A DNA stretch of 64,000 bases from a virus. Lineage: Duplodnaviria > Caudoviricetes. Under the pieces are notes generated by a model. That model was not told where the DNA came from, did no database searches, and saw only the letters and a program-made list of their open reading frames with translations. Numbering within the stretch: position 1 is the stretch's first letter; every line of letters begins with the position of its first letter. The stretch is from positions 138,055 to 202,054 of the IMG/VR virus record IMGVR_UViG_3300020469_000008. One strand, given 5' to 3'. This document shows positions 1,441 to 43,762 of this stretch, piece by piece. The position numbers were made by a program, and so were the translations under genes.

Positions 1441-3027
1441 ATGCTGTACATTCTATTTACTTTACTGTTATTCTCTTGTAACGATTATGGCGTCAACAAA
1501 GTAGTTCAAACTGATCCAGAATTAGTTGTCTACCCTGAATCAATTGATTTTGGACATTTACTGTCCGGACATGAATCGGGGCTGGCAACTTTTGCTGTTA
1601 TAAACGCAGGTGATGAGGAATTAATCATAAGTCAACCTGAACTAGTCACAAGTAACGACAAGTTTAGCCTAGATAGTGATTTAGAGGAAAACTATACAAT
1701 CAGTCCGGGAGAAACCTTAGAGTTTGTTGTTTATTACGAACCGAAAACTTTTGAAAGTAATACCGGGCTGATTCGATTCGTGACAAACGACGAAGATGAA
1801 AATCAATATGAATTACCAGTATCAGGTTTCGGTGATGCACCAGTCATGACAGTGACACCAGAGACATTTGATTATGGTCAAATAAGTATAGGATGTGATA
1901 ATGAAGAAAGAATCACCATCCGCAACGATGGAAACATATCGTTAACCATAGAAAATATCACACAAATGGTAACACAACCTCAAGATATTATCATGGAAAT
2001 GGGTAGTTTACCAGCACCGCCATGGGAATTATTGCCCGGTCAAGAAGTTGATTTTTTGGTTTCTTACATTCCAGTTGACATTAGTTATGACGAAAGTATT
2101 ATTCGTATCGAAGGTAATGATCCCGTACTTCCTGTTAAGGAGGTAATACAGTATGGCGATGGTGATGTCGAACATTGGTATACACAAACGCACGTGCAAG
2201 AAGAAATAGCATTGCTCGACGTCATATTCGTAGTGGACAATTCCGGGTCAATGAATGTATTCCAGCAAGAGTTAGGCAATCAAATGAGTTCATTCATGTA
2301 TGTTTTTAATGCATCAGGAGCAGATTATCACCTTGCAGCGATTACAACAGATGAAGCTCGATTTATTTATTTTGATGGGCTAACTTGGATTGACAAATCA
2401 CACCCACATCCAATTGCTTGGATGCAGAATGTTATTTCATCTATCAGTACTACAGGAAGTGGCATGGAAAAAGGTATTGAAATGGCAAAGTACGCACTGG
2501 AAGGAGATGGCGCACCAGGTAATGGTTTTTATCGTGAAGACGCAACCATGGTCATAATATACGTATCTGATGAACCAGATCATTCGAGCGGTGGGTATGG
2601 TTCATATACATCTTTTTTTGATGGTTTTAAGGCATCGCCTGACTTAATGAGACAATTTGCTGTAATTGGTGATTATCCATCCGGATGTCAGTTTCCTTGG
2701 ATGTCTTCACACAGAAATGTATTCTTTGGATCAGGCTATTATCATATGACTCAAAGGTACAACGGTGATTGGTATTCAATATGTGCCACAGACTGGGGTC
2801 AACAAATGCAAAACTTAGCAACTACTGTCACAACACGTAAAATATTTCCACTCGATGCACACGATCCAATTGAACAAACAATTTCTGTCTCAGTAAATGG
2901 CCAATTAACAAATAACTGGGTGTATGATGTAGGAATTAACGCTGTTATTTTTGATGATCATTCTGTCCCGGAGCCAAATCAGACTATTACGATTGAATAT
3001 GCAGTTTGGGGATGTGGCGATGAGTAG
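1441..3027 (+). CDS. lipoprotein with two Ig-like (choice-of-anchor D/ASH) domains and a von Willebrand A domain
   Basis: Lipobox LFSC; repeated P-x-x-DF/DYG...I-x-N-x-G Ig-like units; MIDAS DVIFVVDNSGSM and YVSDEPD. Confidence 0.75.
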   Translation: MLYILFTLLLFSCNDYGVNKVVQTDPELVVYPESIDFGHLLSGHESGLATFAVINAGDEELIISQPELVTSNDKFSLDSDLEENYTISPGETLEFVVYYEPKTFESNTGLIRFVTNDEDENQYELPVSGFGDAPVMTVTPETFDYGQISIGCDNEERITIRNDGNISLTIENITQMVTQPQDIIMEMGSLPAPPWELLPGQEVDFLVSYIPVDISYDESIIRIEGNDPVLPVKEVIQYGDGDVEHWYTQTHVQEEIALLDVIFVVDNSGSMNVFQQELGNQMSSFMYVFNASGADYHLAAITTDEARFIYFDGLTWIDKSHPHPIAWMQNVISSISTTGSGMEKGIEMAKYALEGDGAPGNGFYREDATMVIIYVSDEPDHSSGGYGSYTSFFDGFKASPDLMRQFAVIGDYPSGCQFPWMSSHRNVFFGSGYYHMTQRYNGDWYSICATDWGQQMQNLATTVTTRKIFPLDAHDPIEQTISVSVNGQLTNNWVYDVGINAVIFDDHSVPEPNQTITIEYAVWGCGDE

Positions 3028-3526
3028 AAATTTAAAACTTTTTCTTACATTAATTTTTGGTTTTTGCTTAGGTTTGACGATAAAACGTGTTTATGAAGCT
3101 AATGTTTTCCACGCGTGGGTGTGGCCAGAACCGCCTATCGTAATAAATTGTTATGGCAAAGTCTTACCTGAAATTGTTGTGGTTCGGGCAATTGATTATT
3201 GGACAATAAGGGGGTTTCCTATCTCTTTTTACGAAATGAATCCATCAAAAGAAACGTGTGCGAATGATTCTATAGAAGGTTTTATAATCATAAGGAGAGA
3301 CCCAAGCTTAGAAAATATAAATGTTTTAGGCCAGACTGCAAGACATACGCAATTAAAGTGGATGAGAAGTGCTGTTATTAGTTTGAGACCTGGATCATAT
3401 AATCTAGATTTATTATTAGAGCATGAGCTAGGACATGCACTAGGTTTAGGACATGTAGAAGTAGAAGGTCACATTATGCACCCGATGTACATGCAGATTG
3501 GTAGTAAGTTTTGGATACCAAAATAA
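3020..3526 (+). CDS. matrixin-type (metzincin) zinc metalloprotease
   Basis: HELGHALGLGH zinc motif plus Met-turn HIMHP; N-terminal hydrophobic segment; ATG at 3020 overlaps the upstream gene. Confidence 0.8.
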   Translation: MSRNLKLFLTLIFGFCLGLTIKRVYEANVFHAWVWPEPPIVINCYGKVLPEIVVVRAIDYWTIRGFPISFYEMNPSKETCANDSIEGFIIIRRDPSLENINVLGQTARHTQLKWMRSAVISLRPGSYNLDLLLEHELGHALGLGHVEVEGHIMHPMYMQIGSKFWIPK

Positions 3527-3534
3527 TTTGATAT

Positions 3535-5622
3535 TTAAAGTTTGTTGATTGTCAAATAGGTTAAATGTAATCCTGAATTGATTGTAGTTCCCGATTCAGC
3601 TCCCCCAATATTGCGAAAGTTTATCTTAACTTTATCATTTTTCTCTAGATGCGCAACCCTATCTAGTTTATGCATGTGGGCTGAATTTTCTGCCGATCCA
3701 CCCGGGAAGTAATTTCTAAATGCAATTCCGCCATTGTTTTGAGCATAACTACAAGACGAAGATACCCAAAGCTGATACTGTGAAGTACCAGTATTGATAC
3801 TTTGCTGGTATGCAGAAACGTTGATATTGTAAAAACCTTCTTCAGATGCTGTAAATGTATATGTTCCTGTGTCAAATTCACCTGAACCGAATGTATCTTT
3901 AAGGACATTGTTAAAAGGTATAGCTTGGAATTCGTTAGTACCTGTGGGACTATAAGCAAAATCGCTTGACATGTGGACCATAAGAACTTTTGGTGTTATG
4001 TTTGCCGTTAAAGATCCAGATATAACTACATCACCAGTAAATACTGAGGTACCTCTAGTTGTTGTACCTCTTGATCCAATAGCCCCTGAAAAAATTTGTA
4101 TTGCATCCAGCTGTGGTTCTATTACTGAACTTGCAGTTGGAGTAAAAACCTGAACTAGTTCATTGTTACCGTCAGCGCCTGCAAACTTTACCTGCTCATC
4201 AAATCTTAAATCAATCCTATTATCACCATCAATAGTTAGAACTTGTGTATTACCTTTAATCCATGGGCCGTTTGCTAGTCCAGTTCCGTCAAAAAATATT
4301 GAATCAGTGCCATCGCCATCACCACTGATTATAATATTGCCGTGAAGTCGCGCGTTACCACTGACAACTAAATCACCGCCAAAAACAGCCGTACCTGCTG
4401 TAGAAGATCCTCGTGAACCTATGGAGCCAGAGACAAAAAAGTTAGTGTCTGTAGCATTCTTAACGTTGGGACTAGTTCCGGCGCCGCCAGACATTATTAA
4501 AACCTGGTCTATTGAACCTTCACTCATTTTGATCATTGATCTGCCACCGGCTTCAAAAGATATCTCATCAGCATCAAACGAAATACTAGTATCAGAATCA
4601 CCAATGTGATGAATCTTATGTGCGATCGCCAGGTCGCTGTCTGTGTTACTGCTAGAAACTGTAAGCGTTGCTGCGGGTAACGAAGTCACCTTGCCAATCC
4701 CTACTCTACCGTCACCTCTCACGCGTAACACCGTTGTCGATGCAGACTCAACATCAAAGAGGTTTGTTCCAGAGCCTGTTCCGTCACTGGTAACTTTTAA
4801 TCCGTGACCTGATGTACCCTGGTCGTTATCAATAATCGCAGCATAATCAGAGATATTTGCATATACGCCTAATGCTCCAGTTACTGTTAAAACACTTCCA
4901 TCAAAATTAAGATTTGCTTCACCGTTTAATGTATCAGACGATGAAAAAGTTGCAATTCTATTATTAGCACCATTTGTGACACCAGAAACAGAACCGCCTC
5001 CACCACCGCCTGACTGATTAACAAAGCTTAAAACACCGTTACCGTCTGTCTTTATAACTTGATTTGCGGATCCATCTGTTGTGGGAAAGCTAAGACCATT
5101 AGCAGTCAGACTACCAGATATCACAACATTACCACCAAACACAGATTGACCTTTCCCGTCTTTCGAACCAGAAACAAAAACGTTGGTATCTGAACCAAGA
5201 CCACTTGGAGTTGCAGTATTTGAATTAATTAAGATATAATCATCTGCAGCGTCAGTAAATAATTGATGTGTGTTACTGTTAGATTCTATTCTAAAGTCAA
5301 CATCATTAGAACCTTCATTTATAACAACAGAATCTTGTGATGCATTTTCATCACAAGAAACCATAAACACACCACCAACAACTAAATCAATACCATCAGA
5401 AGCATTAAATCTTATTGACGTGTCAGTATTGCCTGAGCTAATAGTTCTACCAGTACCCGCTGCATCAGCACCAATGCTAATATTATTGCAAGTAATGTCA
5501 CCTAATATGCTTGTACTGCCTGTTACGACAAGTGAATGTGTGTCAATACCAGCTGATCCGGATACAATGACGCCTTCACCAAACCGCATTGTTGCTGTTC
5601 CCATATTTTTTATCTTTGCCAT
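3535..5622 (-). CDS. putative tail fibre / virion adhesin with C-terminal C1q-like domain
   Basis: G/S/T-rich beta repeats (FVSGS...VFGGxxVxSG, three copies); C-terminal IPFNNVLKD...FDTGTYTFTASEEGFY resembles gC1q. Confidence 0.6.
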   Translation of the reverse strand: MAKIKNMGTATMRFGEGVIVSGSAGIDTHSLVVTGSTSILGDITCNNISIGADAAGTGRTISSGNTDTSIRFNASDGIDLVVGGVFMVSCDENASQDSVVINEGSNDVDFRIESNSNTHQLFTDAADDYILINSNTATPSGLGSDTNVFVSGSKDGKGQSVFGGNVVISGSLTANGLSFPTTDGSANQVIKTDGNGVLSFVNQSGGGGGGSVSGVTNGANNRIATFSSSDTLNGEANLNFDGSVLTVTGALGVYANISDYAAIIDNDQGTSGHGLKVTSDGTGSGTNLFDVESASTTVLRVRGDGRVGIGKVTSLPAATLTVSSSNTDSDLAIAHKIHHIGDSDTSISFDADEISFEAGGRSMIKMSEGSIDQVLIMSGGAGTSPNVKNATDTNFFVSGSIGSRGSSTAGTAVFGGDLVVSGNARLHGNIIISGDGDGTDSIFFDGTGLANGPWIKGNTQVLTIDGDNRIDLRFDEQVKFAGADGNNELVQVFTPTASSVIEPQLDAIQIFSGAIGSRGTTTRGTSVFTGDVVISGSLTANITPKVLMVHMSSDFAYSPTGTNEFQAIPFNNVLKDTFGSGEFDTGTYTFTASEEGFYNINVSAYQQSINTGTSQYQLWVSSSCSYAQNNGGIAFRNYFPGGSAENSAHMHKLDRVAHLEKNDKVKINFRNIGGAESGTTINSGLHLTYLTINKL

Positions 5623-5647
5623 TTTTACCTCAAATTAGTTTTTCAAA

Positions 5648-5657
5648 TATAATTATA
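5648..5657. promoter_or_regulatory. palindrome TATAATTATA between divergent genes (candidate bidirectional promoter element)
   Basis: 10-bp palindrome in the 54-bp gap between the fibre gene (-) and yceI (+). Confidence 0.3.
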
Positions 5658-5676
5658 AATTAGAGGAGGTTAATGT

Positions 5677-6201
5677 ATGGCAAAATATATAATCGATCAA
5701 ACGCACAGTGACATTTCATTTAAAGTAAAGTACATGATGATATCTTCTGTTGAAGGATGTTTTAATAATTATGAGGCATCTTTAATCTCCAGCAAAGAAG
5801 ATTTGAGTGATGCTGCATTTGAGTGTGAAATAGATGTATCTAGTTTGTATACGGGAAATGTAGACAGAGATACACACTTAATATCATCAGAATTTTTAAG
5901 TTCTGAAAGTTTCCCAGCAGTGATCTTTAAATCTACAAATACAAAAATAGTTGATGGTGAGTATATTGTAGACGGATCATTACAAATTAAAGAACACTCT
6001 AGGTCAGCAACTTTACGAGGCAAGTACCTAGGTGTTGTTGTGGATTCTTGTGGTCAAGAAAAATATTGTTTTGAATTAAAAGGATCAATAAAAAGATTTA
6101 GTTGGTTTTTAGATTTTGTTATAACTAGCAGTAAAACTGTTTTAGTTGACAATAACATAGAGTTGAATTTAGATTTACAGTTTTTAAAAGCGGAAGATTA
6201 A
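5677..6201 (+). CDS. yceI: YceI-family lipid/polyisoprenoid-binding protein
   Basis: IIDQTHSDISFKVKYMMISSVEGCF, IDVSSLYTGNVDRDTHL...FP...FKS; SD GGAGG. Confidence 0.85.
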   Translation: MAKYIIDQTHSDISFKVKYMMISSVEGCFNNYEASLISSKEDLSDAAFECEIDVSSLYTGNVDRDTHLISSEFLSSESFPAVIFKSTNTKIVDGEYIVDGSLQIKEHSRSATLRGKYLGVVVDSCGQEKYCFELKGSIKRFSWFLDFVITSSKTVLVDNNIELNLDLQFLKAED

Positions 6202-7439
6202 TGAGATTAAAAACAAGAACGAAGGTCGCTTTCTTACTTGCAGCCATTGCATCACTTGTGTTTATGATATCACAAGTATTTATGTATCTGGATATTATTC
6301 ATTTCTCATACAATATACCTCTATTCAACATTCTGTTATTTGCAATTTACATGCCGTCATCTGCAATTTTTGGTTGGGACATGTACATCAAGTATCGTGA
6401 TGAGAATCAAATGATTAAAGATAAACTAGCAGCAATTAACAATTCTAATATTGTTGTAATTTATGATAGTAAAGGAAATATTGTGCGTGCAAATGACAAT
6501 TTCTGTCGTGTTGTCGGTTATACACAAGAAGAGATTATCGGTTTACATCATATGCTTTTTGTTCCTAATGATTTTGTGAGAAATAAAAAGTACAGAGATT
6601 TTTGGAGCAAGCTAAGAACGGGAAAGAGTGTTAAAAGAAAATTTAAGAGAATCAATAAAATCGGAGAAGTAATTTGGTTATACGGTTCTTATAATCCTAT
6701 TAAAAGTGGAAGTGGTGCTGTTTATCAAATCATTAATGTGTGTAGCGATGTAACTGGTGAACACAACGCTCAACTAGAATTAAATAATAAAAACACTTAT
6801 TTAGAACATGCAGCAAAAATTCTACGTCACGATATGCACAGTGGTATTAATACATACATTCCAAGAGGTATTAAAAGCTTAGAACGTAGAATTAAACCAG
6901 AGCAAGTAAAAGAAATGAAGATCGAATCTTCACTTCGCCTAATTAAAGATGGATTAGATCACGCACAACGTGTTTATCGTGGTGTGTATGAATTTACAAA
7001 TTTAGTAAAGGAAAATGCTGTATTAGAAAAAAATGAGCATGATTTAGGTGTGATACTAAAAGATTATTTAAAAAAGACAGCATACGCGGATCAAGTAATA
7101 ATTGAAGATTTACCCACAATGTTAGTGAACGAAGCACTTTTCTGCACAGGAATCGATAACTTGATTAGAAATGGTTTGAAATATAATGATTCTAAAACCA
7201 AATTCGTAAAAGTCAGAATGCAAGGGGAAAAACACTTGGTAGTAATTGATAATGGTCGAGGTATGTCACAGAAAGATTTTGAAAAATTAAGTCAACCATA
7301 TCAAAGGAAAGAAGGTCAAAAAGAAAAGGGCACTGGACTGGGATTAAACATTTCTGTCGCCATATTTAAAGAACATGGGTTTCACATGACTGTTGAGAAA
7401 CTAGACGTAGGTACGATGATCAAGGTAAAGATACGATGA
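6201..7439 (+). CDS. membrane PAS-domain sensor histidine kinase
   Basis: Two N-terminal TM segments; MCP-like PAS (ANDNF...GY...IIG.HH..FV...FW.KL..G...WL.GSYNPI); H-box RHDMH; N-box NLIRNGLKY; G1 DNGRG; G2 GTGLGL. Confidence 0.9.
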   Translation: MRLKTRTKVAFLLAAIASLVFMISQVFMYLDIIHFSYNIPLFNILLFAIYMPSSAIFGWDMYIKYRDENQMIKDKLAAINNSNIVVIYDSKGNIVRANDNFCRVVGYTQEEIIGLHHMLFVPNDFVRNKKYRDFWSKLRTGKSVKRKFKRINKIGEVIWLYGSYNPIKSGSGAVYQIINVCSDVTGEHNAQLELNNKNTYLEHAAKILRHDMHSGINTYIPRGIKSLERRIKPEQVKEMKIESSLRLIKDGLDHAQRVYRGVYEFTNLVKENAVLEKNEHDLGVILKDYLKKTAYADQVIIEDLPTMLVNEALFCTGIDNLIRNGLKYNDSKTKFVKVRMQGEKHLVVIDNGRGMSQKDFEKLSQPYQRKEGQKEKGTGLGLNISVAIFKEHGFHMTVEKLDVGTMIKVKIR

Positions 7440-7867
7440 TTAATTCTATTTTATTAGTTGATGATGAAAATTTGTTTCATCTCGTTTTTGAAGATGCATG
7501 TAGTTTGTTAGACATAACATTAGATCTACAAAGCATTGCATCCTCTGATGAAGCAGCTCGATTATTTGAGCAATGGACATCAGATCCTAGGGGAAAGCCT
7601 GAATGTGTTTTTGTTGATCTAAACATTATTGGTTCTTCTTTTAACGGTATCGAATTAATTCAAAAGATTAATTACGAGTACGGAAACGGAGTTGTTGTTG
7701 GAATTATAAGCTCATCAGCAGATCAAGAAGAGATTGATCGGAGCTTGCACGCCGGAGCACAGTTTTGGATTGTCAAATCAGATGACATTGAACCTAGACT
7801 AGAATCTTTTAAAGAAGATTACGAAGGATATAAAAATCGTACATCTCCTTTTAAAGTATATAAGTAA
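7436..7867 (+). CDS. stand-alone response regulator receiver protein
   Basis: LLVDDE acidic pocket, CVFVDLN phosphoacceptor Asp, ISSS, IVKS conserved Lys; ATGA overlap with the kinase. Confidence 0.9.
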   Translation: MINSILLVDDENLFHLVFEDACSLLDITLDLQSIASSDEAARLFEQWTSDPRGKPECVFVDLNIIGSSFNGIELIQKINYEYGNGVVVGIISSSADQEEIDRSLHAGAQFWIVKSDDIEPRLESFKEDYEGYKNRTSPFKVYK

Positions 7868-8424
7868 TGATTATTCTTAGTGAAGAAGATAAAAAACAAT
7901 TAATTGATATTGGTCAATCACGTAATGTTTATCTAGAAGGTAATATTATAAAATTAATCGATCCTCAAGCTGACGAATTGTTTAAAAAGTATCTTGTTGA
8001 CGCTAAAATTCAAGATCGAGAGAACAGAAAAAAGCGTCTCGAAGTTACTAAGCAAGTTCAAATACAAAATAGAGAGTTAATTGCTTCACAGGAAGAAAAC
8101 GAAAAACTTCTTTTAGACTTAAAAGAAGCTGTTAAAAAAGCAGATGAAGCAAAAGATGCAGCATTAAATGATTTAGACCTGATGCAAAAGAAAACCCAGT
8201 TTGAACTAATCGGAAAAATTGTTCAGGTTGCATTGTGGATCATTATTGGCGTTGGAGTTTTCACGACAGTTTTGTTTATGTTTTCAATGTATACAGGTAT
8301 AGACACTACTTTGATTGGTAATACTTGGAGTAACCTGTTTGGAATATTACTCACAAATTCTTTTAGTATTATTGGTACAATAATGGGTGTAAAGTATGCT
8401 AGTGAAAGTAATAAAGAAAACTAG
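7867..8424 (+). CDS. coiled-coil membrane protein coupled to the two-component genes
   Basis: TAATG overlap; coiled-coil N-half and two C-terminal hydrophobic helices. Confidence 0.7.
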   Translation: MIILSEEDKKQLIDIGQSRNVYLEGNIIKLIDPQADELFKKYLVDAKIQDRENRKKRLEVTKQVQIQNRELIASQEENEKLLLDLKEAVKKADEAKDAALNDLDLMQKKTQFELIGKIVQVALWIIIGVGVFTTVLFMFSMYTGIDTTLIGNTWSNLFGILLTNSFSIIGTIMGVKYASESNKEN

Positions 8425-8723
8425 TTTTCCCACCACACATTTGCAACGTCCCAATCAATCATTTCACTTAGCCAATTAGGAAATGAACCTGTACAATCAA
8501 AATCAAACCACTCGCCCTTGCAAGATTGTTTATAGGGCTTCAAAGATTTAAGCAGGGATCTTTCTAAATCACCCCTACCATTTACTATGGTGAGCAACTT
8601 AAGTTTATATGGAGATCCAGTTTGAAGCTGTCGCAACCTATTTTGGGGATTTTTACTCATACCAATTTTAATTGCGCCCGTGACGTCAGATTGTATTACA
8701 TAAAGGTGTTTATTCATATACAT
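8421..8723 (-). CDS. GIY-YIG nuclease (T5orf172/MUG113-like)
   Basis: LYVIQ...IKIGMSKNPQNRLRQLQTGSP...E...GEWF. Confidence 0.8.
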   Translation of the reverse strand: MYMNKHLYVIQSDVTGAIKIGMSKNPQNRLRQLQTGSPYKLKLLTIVNGRGDLERSLLKSLKPYKQSCKGEWFDFDCTGSFPNWLSEMIDWDVANVWWEN

Positions 8724-13770: not shown

Positions 13771-14107
13771 GGGCCCGTAATGGTTTCGACGGGGTAGAAT
13801 CAAGGGGAGAGTGCAAGTAGGGAAGATACGCCCTTAACAGTTCAAACATAATAGTTGCAAACAATAACAACTTTTACGACGTAGCTTTAGCTGCATAATC
13901 GTGGTGGTCGTCTCAAACCATCTAACCAAGAGAGGCTTTAGCAGTTGGAACTGCCGAGAAATAAAATGACAACAGTCCTCACTCGGTCACGGAGAGGCGA
14001 ACAATACAGTGACTATCCTGTTAATCGGAGAAATGATTAGATAAGCTTGTGAATGACTCAAACTAAGACTATTGCGGACAGGGGTTCGACTCCCCTCGGG
14101 TCCACCA
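13771..14107 (+). ncRNA. ssrA: transfer-messenger RNA (tmRNA)
   Basis: 5' GGGCCCG pairs with 3' CGGGTCC giving G3.U70, then A-CCA; T-arm GGGG-TTCGACT-CCCC; tag ORF 13857-13898 ANNNNFYDVALAA*; TATAAT at 13755. Confidence 0.95.
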
Positions 14108-42915: not shown

Positions 42916-42989
42916 GCACCCGTAGCTCAGCTGGATAGAGCATCCGCCTTCTAAGCGGATGGTCACAGGTTCAAATCCTGTCGGGTGTA
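42916..42989 (+). tRNA. tRNA-Arg(TCT)
   Basis: Cloverleaf; anticodon arm TCCGC-CTTCTAA-GCGGA; T-loop GTTCAAATC; CCA not encoded. Confidence 0.95.
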
Positions 42990-42998
42990 CATTTAAGT

Positions 42999-43083
42999 AG
43001 TCGATACTTTGGGTTGGATTAATTTATCCTGTGTCCTCAGAGGTATAAGTATCGACTTTCCTTGGTTGGCCTCTGGGGACACA
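42999..43083 (+). ncRNA. candidate pseudoknotted RNA element
   Basis: Interleaved inverted repeats: 42999-43009/43047-43057 (11 bp) and 43030-43043/43070-43083 (14 bp, one G.U). Confidence 0.5.
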
Positions 43084-43104
43084 CTTAATTTTCTGAGGTG
43101 GAAG

Positions 43105-43416
43105 ATGAGATTAGTAGAAGAAAAAGAATACGACGAAATTATTGGTAATACAAGTAATTTGATTGTGCAACTATCTGCAGACTGGTGTGGTCCTTGTAGA
43201 GTGCTCACACCTATTTTAGAATCGGTTGCTAAAGAAAAAGGTATTGATGTGATTAAAGTTAATATAGATAACAACCTGTCAATTGTTGCACGACATGCAG
43301 TTAGAGGTATACCACGAATATTATTTTTTAAAGATGGAAATGTTGCTGCTGATCTCACAGGCAATCAAAAAAGAAATAAGCTAGAAGAAGTTTGCAGTCA
43401 AGTTTATGAATGTTAA
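43105..43416 (+). CDS. trxA: thioredoxin
   Basis: ADWCGPC, VRGIP; ATG 43105 after GAGGTGG. Confidence 0.9.
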   Translation: MRLVEEKEYDEIIGNTSNLIVQLSADWCGPCRVLTPILESVAKEKGIDVIKVNIDNNLSIVARHAVRGIPRILFFKDGNVAADLTGNQKRNKLEEVCSQVYEC

Positions 43417-43582
43417 AAGAAAAAAAGAAATAGAGAAGTATTACCTTCAAGTTAATCGAGCCTATCGCGATTTAAAATATATGAAGTACGATCATGAATT
43501 AAGCTTCCAAGGAGAAATAAAAATCGCAATTGTAAATCTAGAGAAGATTAGGTTAGAATTAAAAAGAAAGTTGGAGGAATAG
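43406..43582 (+). CDS. hypothetical protein (58 aa, not in track)
   Basis: MNVKRKKEIEKYYLQVNRAY... fills the gap before tRNA-Gly. Confidence 0.4.
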   Translation: MNVKRKKEIEKYYLQVNRAYRDLKYMKYDHELSFQGEIKIAIVNLEKIRLELKRKLEE

Positions 43583-43586
43583 CTTT

Positions 43587-43659
43587 GCGGGAATAGCTCA
43601 GTTGGTAGAGCACAACCTTGCCAAGGTTGGGGTCGCGAGTTCGAATCTCGTTTCCCGCT
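43587..43659 (+). tRNA. tRNA-Gly(GCC)
   Basis: GCGGGAA/TTCCCGC acceptor; CAACC-TTGCCAA-GGTTG anticodon arm. Confidence 0.97.
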
Positions 43660-43666
43660 TATTTAA

Positions 43667-43739
43667 GGGCACTTAGCTCAGCGGTCAGAGCATCCGACTC
43701 ATAATCGGCAGGTCCAGGGTTCAATCCCCTGAGTGCCCA
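43667..43739 (+). tRNA. tRNA with CAT anticodon, probably Ile2 (lysidine), alternatively elongator Met
   Basis: GGGCACT/AGTGCCC acceptor; loop CTCATAA; paired 1-72 excludes initiator; resembles ileX-type tRNAs. Confidence 0.85.
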
Positions 43740-43762
43740 CACATCTTAACAAAGGAGAAAAA

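Follow-up and report, generated by a model that had tools for sequence, protein, structure and literature searches.

A two-component module with a stand-alone receiver and an apparently virus-only membrane protein in T4-like marine phages, and its possible role in lysis

Two-component signalling is textbook biology, and the described systems that most resemble the one reported here rely on a single-domain receiver that works through protein contact: CheA-CheY, phytochrome kinases with Rcp1/RcpA, DivJ/PleC with DivK, and KinA-E feeding Spo0F. Their kinases carry H, N, G1 and G2 boxes, and their receivers of ~140 amino acids (aa) have the DD-D-S/T-K quintet and no output domain. A further point of reference is LytSR with LrgAB/CidAB of Staphylococcus and Bacillus, where a membrane-anchored kinase thought to read the membrane or energy state is linked to small membrane proteins that control the access of murein hydrolases. 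Phages are known to control lysis by holin clocks, by superinfection sensing of the T4 type and, if temperate, by small-molecule communication. The moment of lysis determines both burst size and latent period, the two parameters that set phage fitness and the pace at which carbon is released from marine bacteria. Here we analyze a four-gene operon at positions 5677-8424 of a 64,000-nucleotide stretch of DNA (positions 138,055 to 202,054 of IMG/VR virus record IMGVR_UViG_3300020469_000008; hereafter, the window) from an uncultured, lytic-type, T4-like giant marine phage. Three of its genes, for a histidine kinase (HK), a stand-alone receiver (RR) and a membrane hairpin protein (gene 4), form a module that is maintained among related phages. 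In our reading, the trio would work as a two-component relay that the phage supplies itself and whose output is a protein contact at the membrane, most likely modulating holin triggering; we give the whole chain a probability of roughly 0.4.

The four open reading frames (ORFs) of the operon lie on the same strand and encode a YceI-like protein (5677..6201, +), a sensor histidine kinase with a hairpin of two transmembrane helices (2-TM) and a PAS domain (6201..7439, +), the receiver (7436..7867, +) and gene 4, a coiled-coil/2-TM protein (7867..8424, +). The junctions are TAATG (6201), ATGA (7436) and TAATG (7867). An initial annotation of this DNA, made from its letters and ORFs, had proposed four translationally coupled genes at 5677-8424 with intact H, N, G1 and G2 boxes and a phospho-acceptor aspartate. 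Its coordinates and overlaps are exact, and all of the named residues could be located and are invariant, or nearly so, in ~65 distinct relatives.

The kinase (412 aa) begins with a 2-TM hairpin that has an outer loop of ~10 residues (residues 9-57), followed by a cytoplasmic PAS domain (residues 83-188, nucleotides (nt) 6447-6764, +) and a catalytic core; the Pfam matches are PAS_3/PAS_9 at ~1e-13 and HATPase_c at 1.3e-13. Its boxes, again on the plus strand, are the H box LRHDMHSGIN with His210 (nt 6822-6851), which marks the putative dimerization and phosphotransfer (DHp) region, the N box NLIRNGLKYN (nt 7158-7187), the G1 box IDNGRGM (nt 7245-7265) and the G2 box GTGLGL (nt 7329-7346), all invariant or nearly so across 64 relatives. 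None of the Pfam HisKA models matched the DHp region, which is recognized by motif and family-wide conservation only; the H-box-like motif lies ~110 residues ahead of the N box and is nearly invariant in relatives.

The receiver (143 aa) matches Response_reg alone (1.6e-8, 35.1 bits versus a cut-off of 30.2 in Pfam), in agreement with its earlier description as a receiver without an output domain. Its D9/D10 acidic pocket, the phospho-acceptor D61 (nt 7616-7618), S92 and K114 are invariant across the family alignment, which contains 59 invariant columns at a mean identity of 77%. An AF2 model shows a clean (beta-alpha)5 fold (pLDDT 93.3) with an extra conserved C-terminal strand (F139, K140, Y142). 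All structural neighbours of this model are receivers. The best full-length ones include 6XVU, Rcp1/RcpA, RPA3017 and CheY, and ~140-aa stand-alone receivers of phytochrome systems are among the neighbours. The likeness to CheY is confined to single-domain architecture and fold: the receiver is paired with a sensor kinase of the classical kind in place of CheA, the 68 neighbourhoods contained neither che nor flagellar genes, and the protein is not classed as a CheY-type chemotaxis regulator.

The phage pair thus has the same H/N/G1/G2 kinase and the same DD-D-S/T-K receiver as the single-domain systems, and we consider a working relay from kinase to receiver very likely. It differs from them in coming from a lytic-type T4-like phage, in having a DHp region without a Pfam HisKA match and in the fact that neither protein belongs to a named orthologue family (NCBIfam orthologue cut-offs were reached by neither kinase nor receiver). 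A further difference is a constant third partner, the coiled-coil/2-TM protein, which has no counterpart there.

This third protein, gene 4 ('TMcc', 185 aa; alignment A1; model pLDDT 82.5), starts with a small N-terminal domain bearing a YLEGN motif with invariant E24-G25. The model then shows one continuous helix (37-143) in which a coiled coil runs into TM1, a short outer loop and TM2, whose invariant motif is WSNxFGILLTNxFSIxGTIMGVKY (nt 8326-8397, +). Within the coil, a basic RKKRLE-TKQVQ segment and a juxtamembrane DLD-QKKTQFEL segment are kept, while the coil length varies by ~10-40 residues. Both termini are predicted to be cytoplasmic from the charge distribution, and this topology would place the N-terminal domain and the coil in the compartment of the receiver, which makes contact between the two proteins plausible. 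There is no invariant His in the alignment, hence gene 4 is not an Hpt-like relay protein and differs in this from Spo0B.

Gene 4 had no family match in Pfam, PHROGs or NCBIfam and no fold match in a Foldseek search of the PDB. A profile search of 1.84 billion proteins returned 254 representatives, the 150 best of which are all family members or fragments, and the ESM Atlas neighbours are all viral. Among 185,579 species genomes (GTDB), only four matches were found. These are contigs of metagenome-assembled genomes (MAGs) from four phyla, each with the full trio, and are therefore probably mis-binned phage DNA. Judged by these searches, gene 4 looks virus-only. On one MAG contig (CBCXTS010000020.1, our locus L093), the matches to kinase, receiver and gene 4 are all split in two, which suggests frameshifts, by assembly error or decay. 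Scans for the context of the most distant gene-4 relatives gave one locus, which belongs to the main family. Of two longer proteins considered as RR-gene-4 fusions, one turned out to carry an unrelated extension at its N terminus and the other to be a truncated chimera.

To place the operon among its relatives we used single-sequence IMG/VR scans, in which the kinase query gave 1 relative and the gene 4 query 472; the loci examined are the best 80 of these 472. We searched 81 fetched loci with tblastn, clustered the ORFs of 68 dereplicated loci and built trees with FastTree or quick IQ-TREE. By tblastn, the receiver adjoins gene 4 in 80/81 loci and the kinase does so in 77/81, the misses being at contig ends. 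In the ORF clustering, all 68 dereplicated loci have gene 4, 67 have the receiver and 64 have a member of the kinase family, which counts 76 ORFs since two occur in some loci. Overlaps of 1-8 nt join RR to gene 4 and HK to RR in most loci; between RR and gene 4 the overlap is mostly 1 or 4 nt. Outside the trio, the most frequent flanking family occurs in just 13/68 loci, if two clusters (30 and 26 loci) are left aside; these consist of short minus-strand ORFs over RR and gene 4 and are read as antisense artefacts (shadow ORFs). With the trio in 64-68 of 68 loci and no flanking family exceeding 13, the trio is a module maintained within a hypervariable region, for which inherited synteny alone is an insufficient explanation. 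The initial annotation had presented a complete phage operon, to be checked by co-conservation in other phages. Such co-conservation was found for three of the four genes, kinase, receiver and membrane partner, and YceI turned out to be an occasional add-on. We also considered whether gene 4 is a core phage gene next to an inserted YceI-HK-RR cassette, an arrangement that we rejected because tblastn puts HK and RR by gene 4 in essentially all loci.

The family is purely metagenomic, with >3,800 receiver clusters and >5,300 gene-4 clusters at 90% identity (Tara, JGI, ENA, Logan; contigs to ~300 kb). A tblastn search of 50,697 GenBank phage records found neither RR nor gene 4. Although sporadic capture of such genes does occur, as seen from kinase-like and receiver-like PHROGs families of isolated phages (phrog_857, phrog_10912, phrog_731), and the module does sit in a hypervariable region, it is highly improbable that we are dealing with a recently captured host two-component operon, a passenger ('moron') devoid of a phage-specific role with gene 4 as a merely syntenic neighbour. 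Such a history is at odds with the thousands of metagenomic members, with invariant catalytic residues, with a receiver identity of 64-92% over a deep phage tree, with a receiver that is barely detectable against PDB receivers, with the failure of kinase and receiver to reach orthologue cut-offs and with a gene 4 that has no detected cellular homologue. We regard this explanation as already largely refuted.

While receiver and gene 4 are constant, the input half of the module is plastic. Kinase sizes range from ~295 aa (hairpin plus DHp and catalytic domains only) up to ~710 aa, and the sensor part consists of nothing, PAS, PAS-PAS, GAF-PAS or GAF-PAS-PAS, varying even inside tight clades; PAS and GAF sensor modules are also a feature of phytochrome-type kinases. 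About 50 of 64 kinases are anchored by the hairpin, and the remainder are soluble. Some loci have a second histidine kinase, at times together with a ~200-aa protein of no known family, between kinase 1 and receiver (L030:4027-5529 and L035:4249-5559; also L039, L047, L048, L055 and L056, L numbers being our handles for related loci). In these relatives two kinases would converge on one receiver, much as several kinases feed Spo0F. In a few others, translationally coupled genes of 163-580 aa that have no Pfam or PHROG match stand between receiver and gene 4 (L042:4226-5968, L007:5215-5982, L015:4447-5993, L010:5428-5991, L069:3006-3497); their products may be additional partners or outputs.

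The variety of kinases bears on where gene 4 acts. It could be part of the signalling apparatus and not its output, as a membrane scaffold, a co-sensor or a coiled-coil phosphatase akin to CheZ or Spo0E, with the receiver addressing another phage or host protein encoded elsewhere. The ~50/64 kinases whose only membrane part is a minimal-loop 2-TM hairpin, including ~295-aa forms without any other sensor domain, are in line with a scaffold or co-sensor. Bacterial kinases of the intramembrane-sensing type usually need a membrane partner (LiaFS, BceS-BceAB), which counts in the same direction. However, gene 4 is kept unchanged where the only kinase is soluble (L045, L063), which argues that it is more than a TM partner of the kinase hairpin. 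As for a phosphatase, the invariant D102, Q107 and Q111 of the juxtamembrane coil loosely recall the acid/amide catalytic pairs of coiled-coil phosphatases, but the D102-Q107 spacing is i+5 and not the DxxxQ of CheZ. A part in a relay is opposed by the lack of an invariant His, which separates gene 4 from Hpt proteins, and an output elsewhere by the absence of any other conserved neighbour able to serve as one. Taken together, we find a role of gene 4 within the signalling apparatus unlikely. That receiver and gene 4 are direct partners seems to us probable. The initial annotation had named the membrane protein as the candidate output; its position as the constant, coupled companion of the kinase-receiver pair is borne out (68/68 loci), and the output role is our interpretation.

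YceI belongs to the plastic half. The protein (174 aa) has a full-length match to Pfam YceI (PF04264, 5.5e-28), the family of E. coli YceI and of the Thermus polyisoprenoid-binding protein TT1927b. It differs from the E. coli protein, which is secreted to the periplasm by means of a signal peptide, in that no signal peptide is present: the domain already begins at residue 4, profile position 23 is the first one covered by the NCBIfam alignment, and no in-frame extension exists upstream. Its predicted location is therefore cytoplasmic. It scores 74 bits against NCBIfam PRK03757, far under the 232-bit equivalog cut-off, and its gene is translationally coupled to that of a kinase. By tblastn, YceI was found in only 4 of 81 fetched loci, and the carriers are the window, L001, L016, L073 and L089 (5 loci of ~70). 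Every carrier has it directly 5' of the kinase gene, to which it is coupled. The carriers fall into two groups, window with L001 and L016 with L073 and L089, whose YceI proteins are ~40% identical and attached to different kinase types. The kinase-core tree joins L016 with L073 and L089 (support 99), and the RR plus gene 4 tree does not. An exchange of a YceI-kinase cassette between backbones was considered as a cause; the AU test does not reject the grouping of L016 with L073 and L089 (p = 0.27), and we make no such claim. YceI had been counted as part of the sensory circuit; we leave it out of the conserved one, given its presence in so few loci, the missing signal peptide and a link to the kinase that is only positional. 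It is best seen as an optional input accessory, and quinone sensing through YceI is speculation.

The mechanism that we propose runs as follows. The kinase, anchored by its 2-TM hairpin, would use its cytoplasmic PAS domain to read a cue from inside the cell or near the membrane; in relatives, GAF, extra PAS modules or a second kinase would take this part, and YceI, where present, could assist as an input accessory, possibly by binding a lipid or isoprenoid ligand. After autophosphorylation of the kinase on His210, the phosphoryl group would move to Asp61 of the stand-alone receiver, which in its phosphorylated state would bind the cytoplasmic N-terminal domain or the coiled coil of gene 4 and thereby change the action of its invariant TM hairpin. 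The most likely effect would be to advance or delay holin-dependent permeabilization of the membrane, with lysis time following the energy or redox state of the infected cell. Phosphotransfer, receiver-gene 4 contact, the sensed signal and the effect on lysis are steps that we infer.

With respect to the cue, the closest sequence relatives of the PAS domain are FAD-binding redox sensors: MmoS PAS-A (3EWK, 1.8e-14), NifL PAS1 (TIGR02938, 8.9e-12) and Aer (8DIK, 2.9e-6). The Aer-like character noted in the initial annotation is thus supported, with MmoS PAS-A the closer match. Many kinases of the family differ from these sensors in using other PAS/GAF sets or no sensor domain. The most specific form of our proposal, in which a virus kinase reads the energy or redox state and the phospho-receiver acts on a virus-only hairpin protein and so sets the moment of lysis post-translationally, a decision that lytic aquatic phages of a large and abundant lineage would take by themselves, is in our opinion rather doubtful.

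The link to lysis comes from the neighbourhoods. Artefacts aside, the families that flank the trio most often are a Phage_holin_4_1 holin (PF05105; 11 of 68 loci), an endolysin of the PG_binding_1 plus GH19 type (likewise 11), a Peptidase_M15_3 endolysin (9), a PG_binding_1 plus Amidase_2 endolysin (7) and phrog_3000/33083 (7). At least one of these (holin, GH19/M15_3/Amidase_2 endolysin or phrog_3000/33083) lies within ~6 kb of the trio in 29/68 loci, often adjacent to it. The gene orders seen include AMI2-holin-HK-RR-gene 4, GH19-M15-holin-HK-RR-gene 4 and HK-RR-gene 4 followed two genes on by M15-holin; one further locus reads GH19-YceI-HK-RR-gene 4. Linkage occurs on either side of the trio, with non-homologous endolysins and in both major clades of the RR plus gene 4 tree, and a 12-kb span makes up about 4-8% of a 150-300 kb genome. 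For these reasons the linkage is more than chance, with the reservation that shared ancestry forbids a simple p-value.

A possible indication of timing comes from the 54-bp divergent intergenic stretch that the operon shares with a minus-strand fiber-like gene. Its promoter-like region (5624..5669, +) comprises TTTACC-18-TATAAT (5624-5653), the heptamer ATAATTA (5649-5655) and a GAGGAGG ribosome-binding site (RBS; 5663-5669). TTTACC-18-TATAAT is the best sigma70-like match of the region (10/12), lies directly upstream of YceI and overlaps ATAATTA. Across the genome, no non-RBS heptamer is more enriched than ATAATTA in the 60 nt ahead of genes (26/218 genes versus 2.5 expected). It also precedes the tail sheath gene, the fiber-like gene and many capsid-cargo 'leader' genes; occurrences in the window include those upstream of 3535-5622(-), 8421-8723(-), 8770, 17214 and 23548. 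We propose it as a candidate -10 element of a phage-specific, perhaps late-type, promoter class, and because the motif is common to these structural genes the operon may belong to the same class. A T4-type late promoter, TATAAATA, was also considered upstream of the module; it is present in only 1/58 relatives and was dropped.

Several points weigh against the proposed mechanism as a whole. The phage of the window has no recognized lysis gene near the module, the sole lysis-like match in its genome being a weak amidase match ~55 kb upstream, and most of its 14-member clade also lack a recognized lysis neighbour. Searches with gene 4 in Pfam, PHROGs and NCBIfam and by fold yielded no holin, antiholin or spanin family, and no RR-gene-4 fusion was found that would have served as Rosetta-stone support. 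The co-conservation of the trio within one phage lineage is partly inherited synteny, and the late-promoter reading comes solely from the motif. In the phage PAS domain, the Aer-type RHPDMP stretch is not kept and reads FVPNDFV, and flavin binding is conjectural. Finally, everything stated here is drawn from sequences and models. The proposal that the circuit times lysis was already part of the initial annotation. It gains indirectly from the recurrent holin and endolysin neighbours of relatives (29/68 loci) and loses from their absence near the module in this phage. Gene 4 shows the same duality: it is a small protein with a C-terminal 2-TM hairpin, with lysis genes within ~6 kb in 29/68 relatives and none in the window. 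We put lysis control forward tentatively.

The same evidence raises the question of whether the relay controls another membrane or host-behaviour process, such as superinfection exclusion, late membrane energetics or transport, or interference with a host membrane machine through TM2 of gene 4. In the clade of the window the module does lie away from lysis genes, here among genes for a surface lipoprotein, a metalloprotease, a fiber-like protein and capsid cargo, and the invariant small-residue face of TM2 (G159, T163, S167, G170, G174) would suit tight packing on a conserved, possibly host, helix. Yet no host partner can be named, and lysis genes are the only functionally coherent recurrent neighbours across the family. 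We judge such a non-lysis process to be quite unlikely.

If the relay does act on lysis, LytSR with LrgAB/CidAB is a close analogue, since the phage family too is linked to holin and endolysin genes. The parts are different. LytS has a 5TM-Lyt sensor and the phage kinase a 2-TM hairpin with PAS, and gene 4 is unrelated to LrgA/CidA (no family match). LytR is a LytTR DNA-binding regulator that acts on transcription; the phage receiver has no DNA-binding domain, and thus control would be post-translational. Lysis inhibition in T4 (holin T, antiholin RI, RIII) offers a conceptual parallel, in which a phage related to this one tunes lysis to a sensed signal via a membrane protein acting on the holin. 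What T4 senses is superinfection, by direct binding between proteins in the periplasm and with neither kinase nor phosphorylation. The two systems are unrelated in sequence, and for the phage module a role in lysis is an inferred one.

The module was not described in the literature as searched in full text. What we found undescribed is a lineage-wide, virus-specific trio with a non-DNA-binding receiver, a hairpin partner that looks virus-only and a recurrent lysis-cassette context; the window adds a YceI-bearing variant and shows that the lysis linkage is not universal. Should the proposed function be correct, the module would act as a holin modulator regulated by phosphorylation, a type of lysis control that is not known from any phage; its interchangeable sensor half (PAS, GAF, YceI, extra kinases) would be fitted to different hosts or niches, and virulent phages would sense host physiology via their own signalling hardware. 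For the study of two-component outputs, the module would be a compact and modular case that bypasses transcription, and the analysis gives a concrete, testable function to an abundant set of 'hypothetical' genes of uncultured jumbo phages.

The window is the terminal 64 kb of a 202-kb record with an estimated completeness of ~70% (CheckV). Its phage origin is confirmed by the IMG/VR record together with genes for a T4-type major capsid protein, Gp23 (PF07068, 3.7e-65), and a tail sheath (phrog_23, 3e-57). The nearest cultured relatives by capsid DNA are Flavobacterium phages of the 'immuto' group, with a match that covers only 6% of the query. On another module-bearing contig (L089, 248 kb), a 643-aa protein (568-2499, -) carries a T9SS C-terminal sorting domain (Por_Secre_tail, 1.6e-11), which hints, by this domain match, at a Bacteroidota host for that sublineage.

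The operon is bordered by the fiber-like gene (3535-5622, -), which is divergent from it and has ATAATTA upstream, and on the other side by a small GIY-YIG-like gene (8421-8723, -) with a MUG113/T5orf172 domain and matches to PHROG homing-endonuclease families. The latter is convergent with gene 4, overlapping its stop by 4 nt, and its homologues occur in only 4/81 related loci at varying positions, as expected of a mobile element. Further upstream are a eukaryotic-type phosphomannomutase (6-650, +; PF03332, 3.4e-33) and, at 1441-3526 (+), a lipobox-containing Ig-like/VWA-like protein that overlaps a matrixin-like HExxH protease (PF00413, 2.1e-8). Downstream, the window contains a cluster of three tRNA genes (Arg-TCT, Gly-GCC, Met-CAT; 42916-43740, +) and a full-length tmRNA gene (13771-14107, +; Rfam RF00023, 108.7 bits) for which ARAGORN gives the tag peptide ANNNNFYDVALAA. 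This tmRNA could be a clue to the host or have a function in translation rescue.

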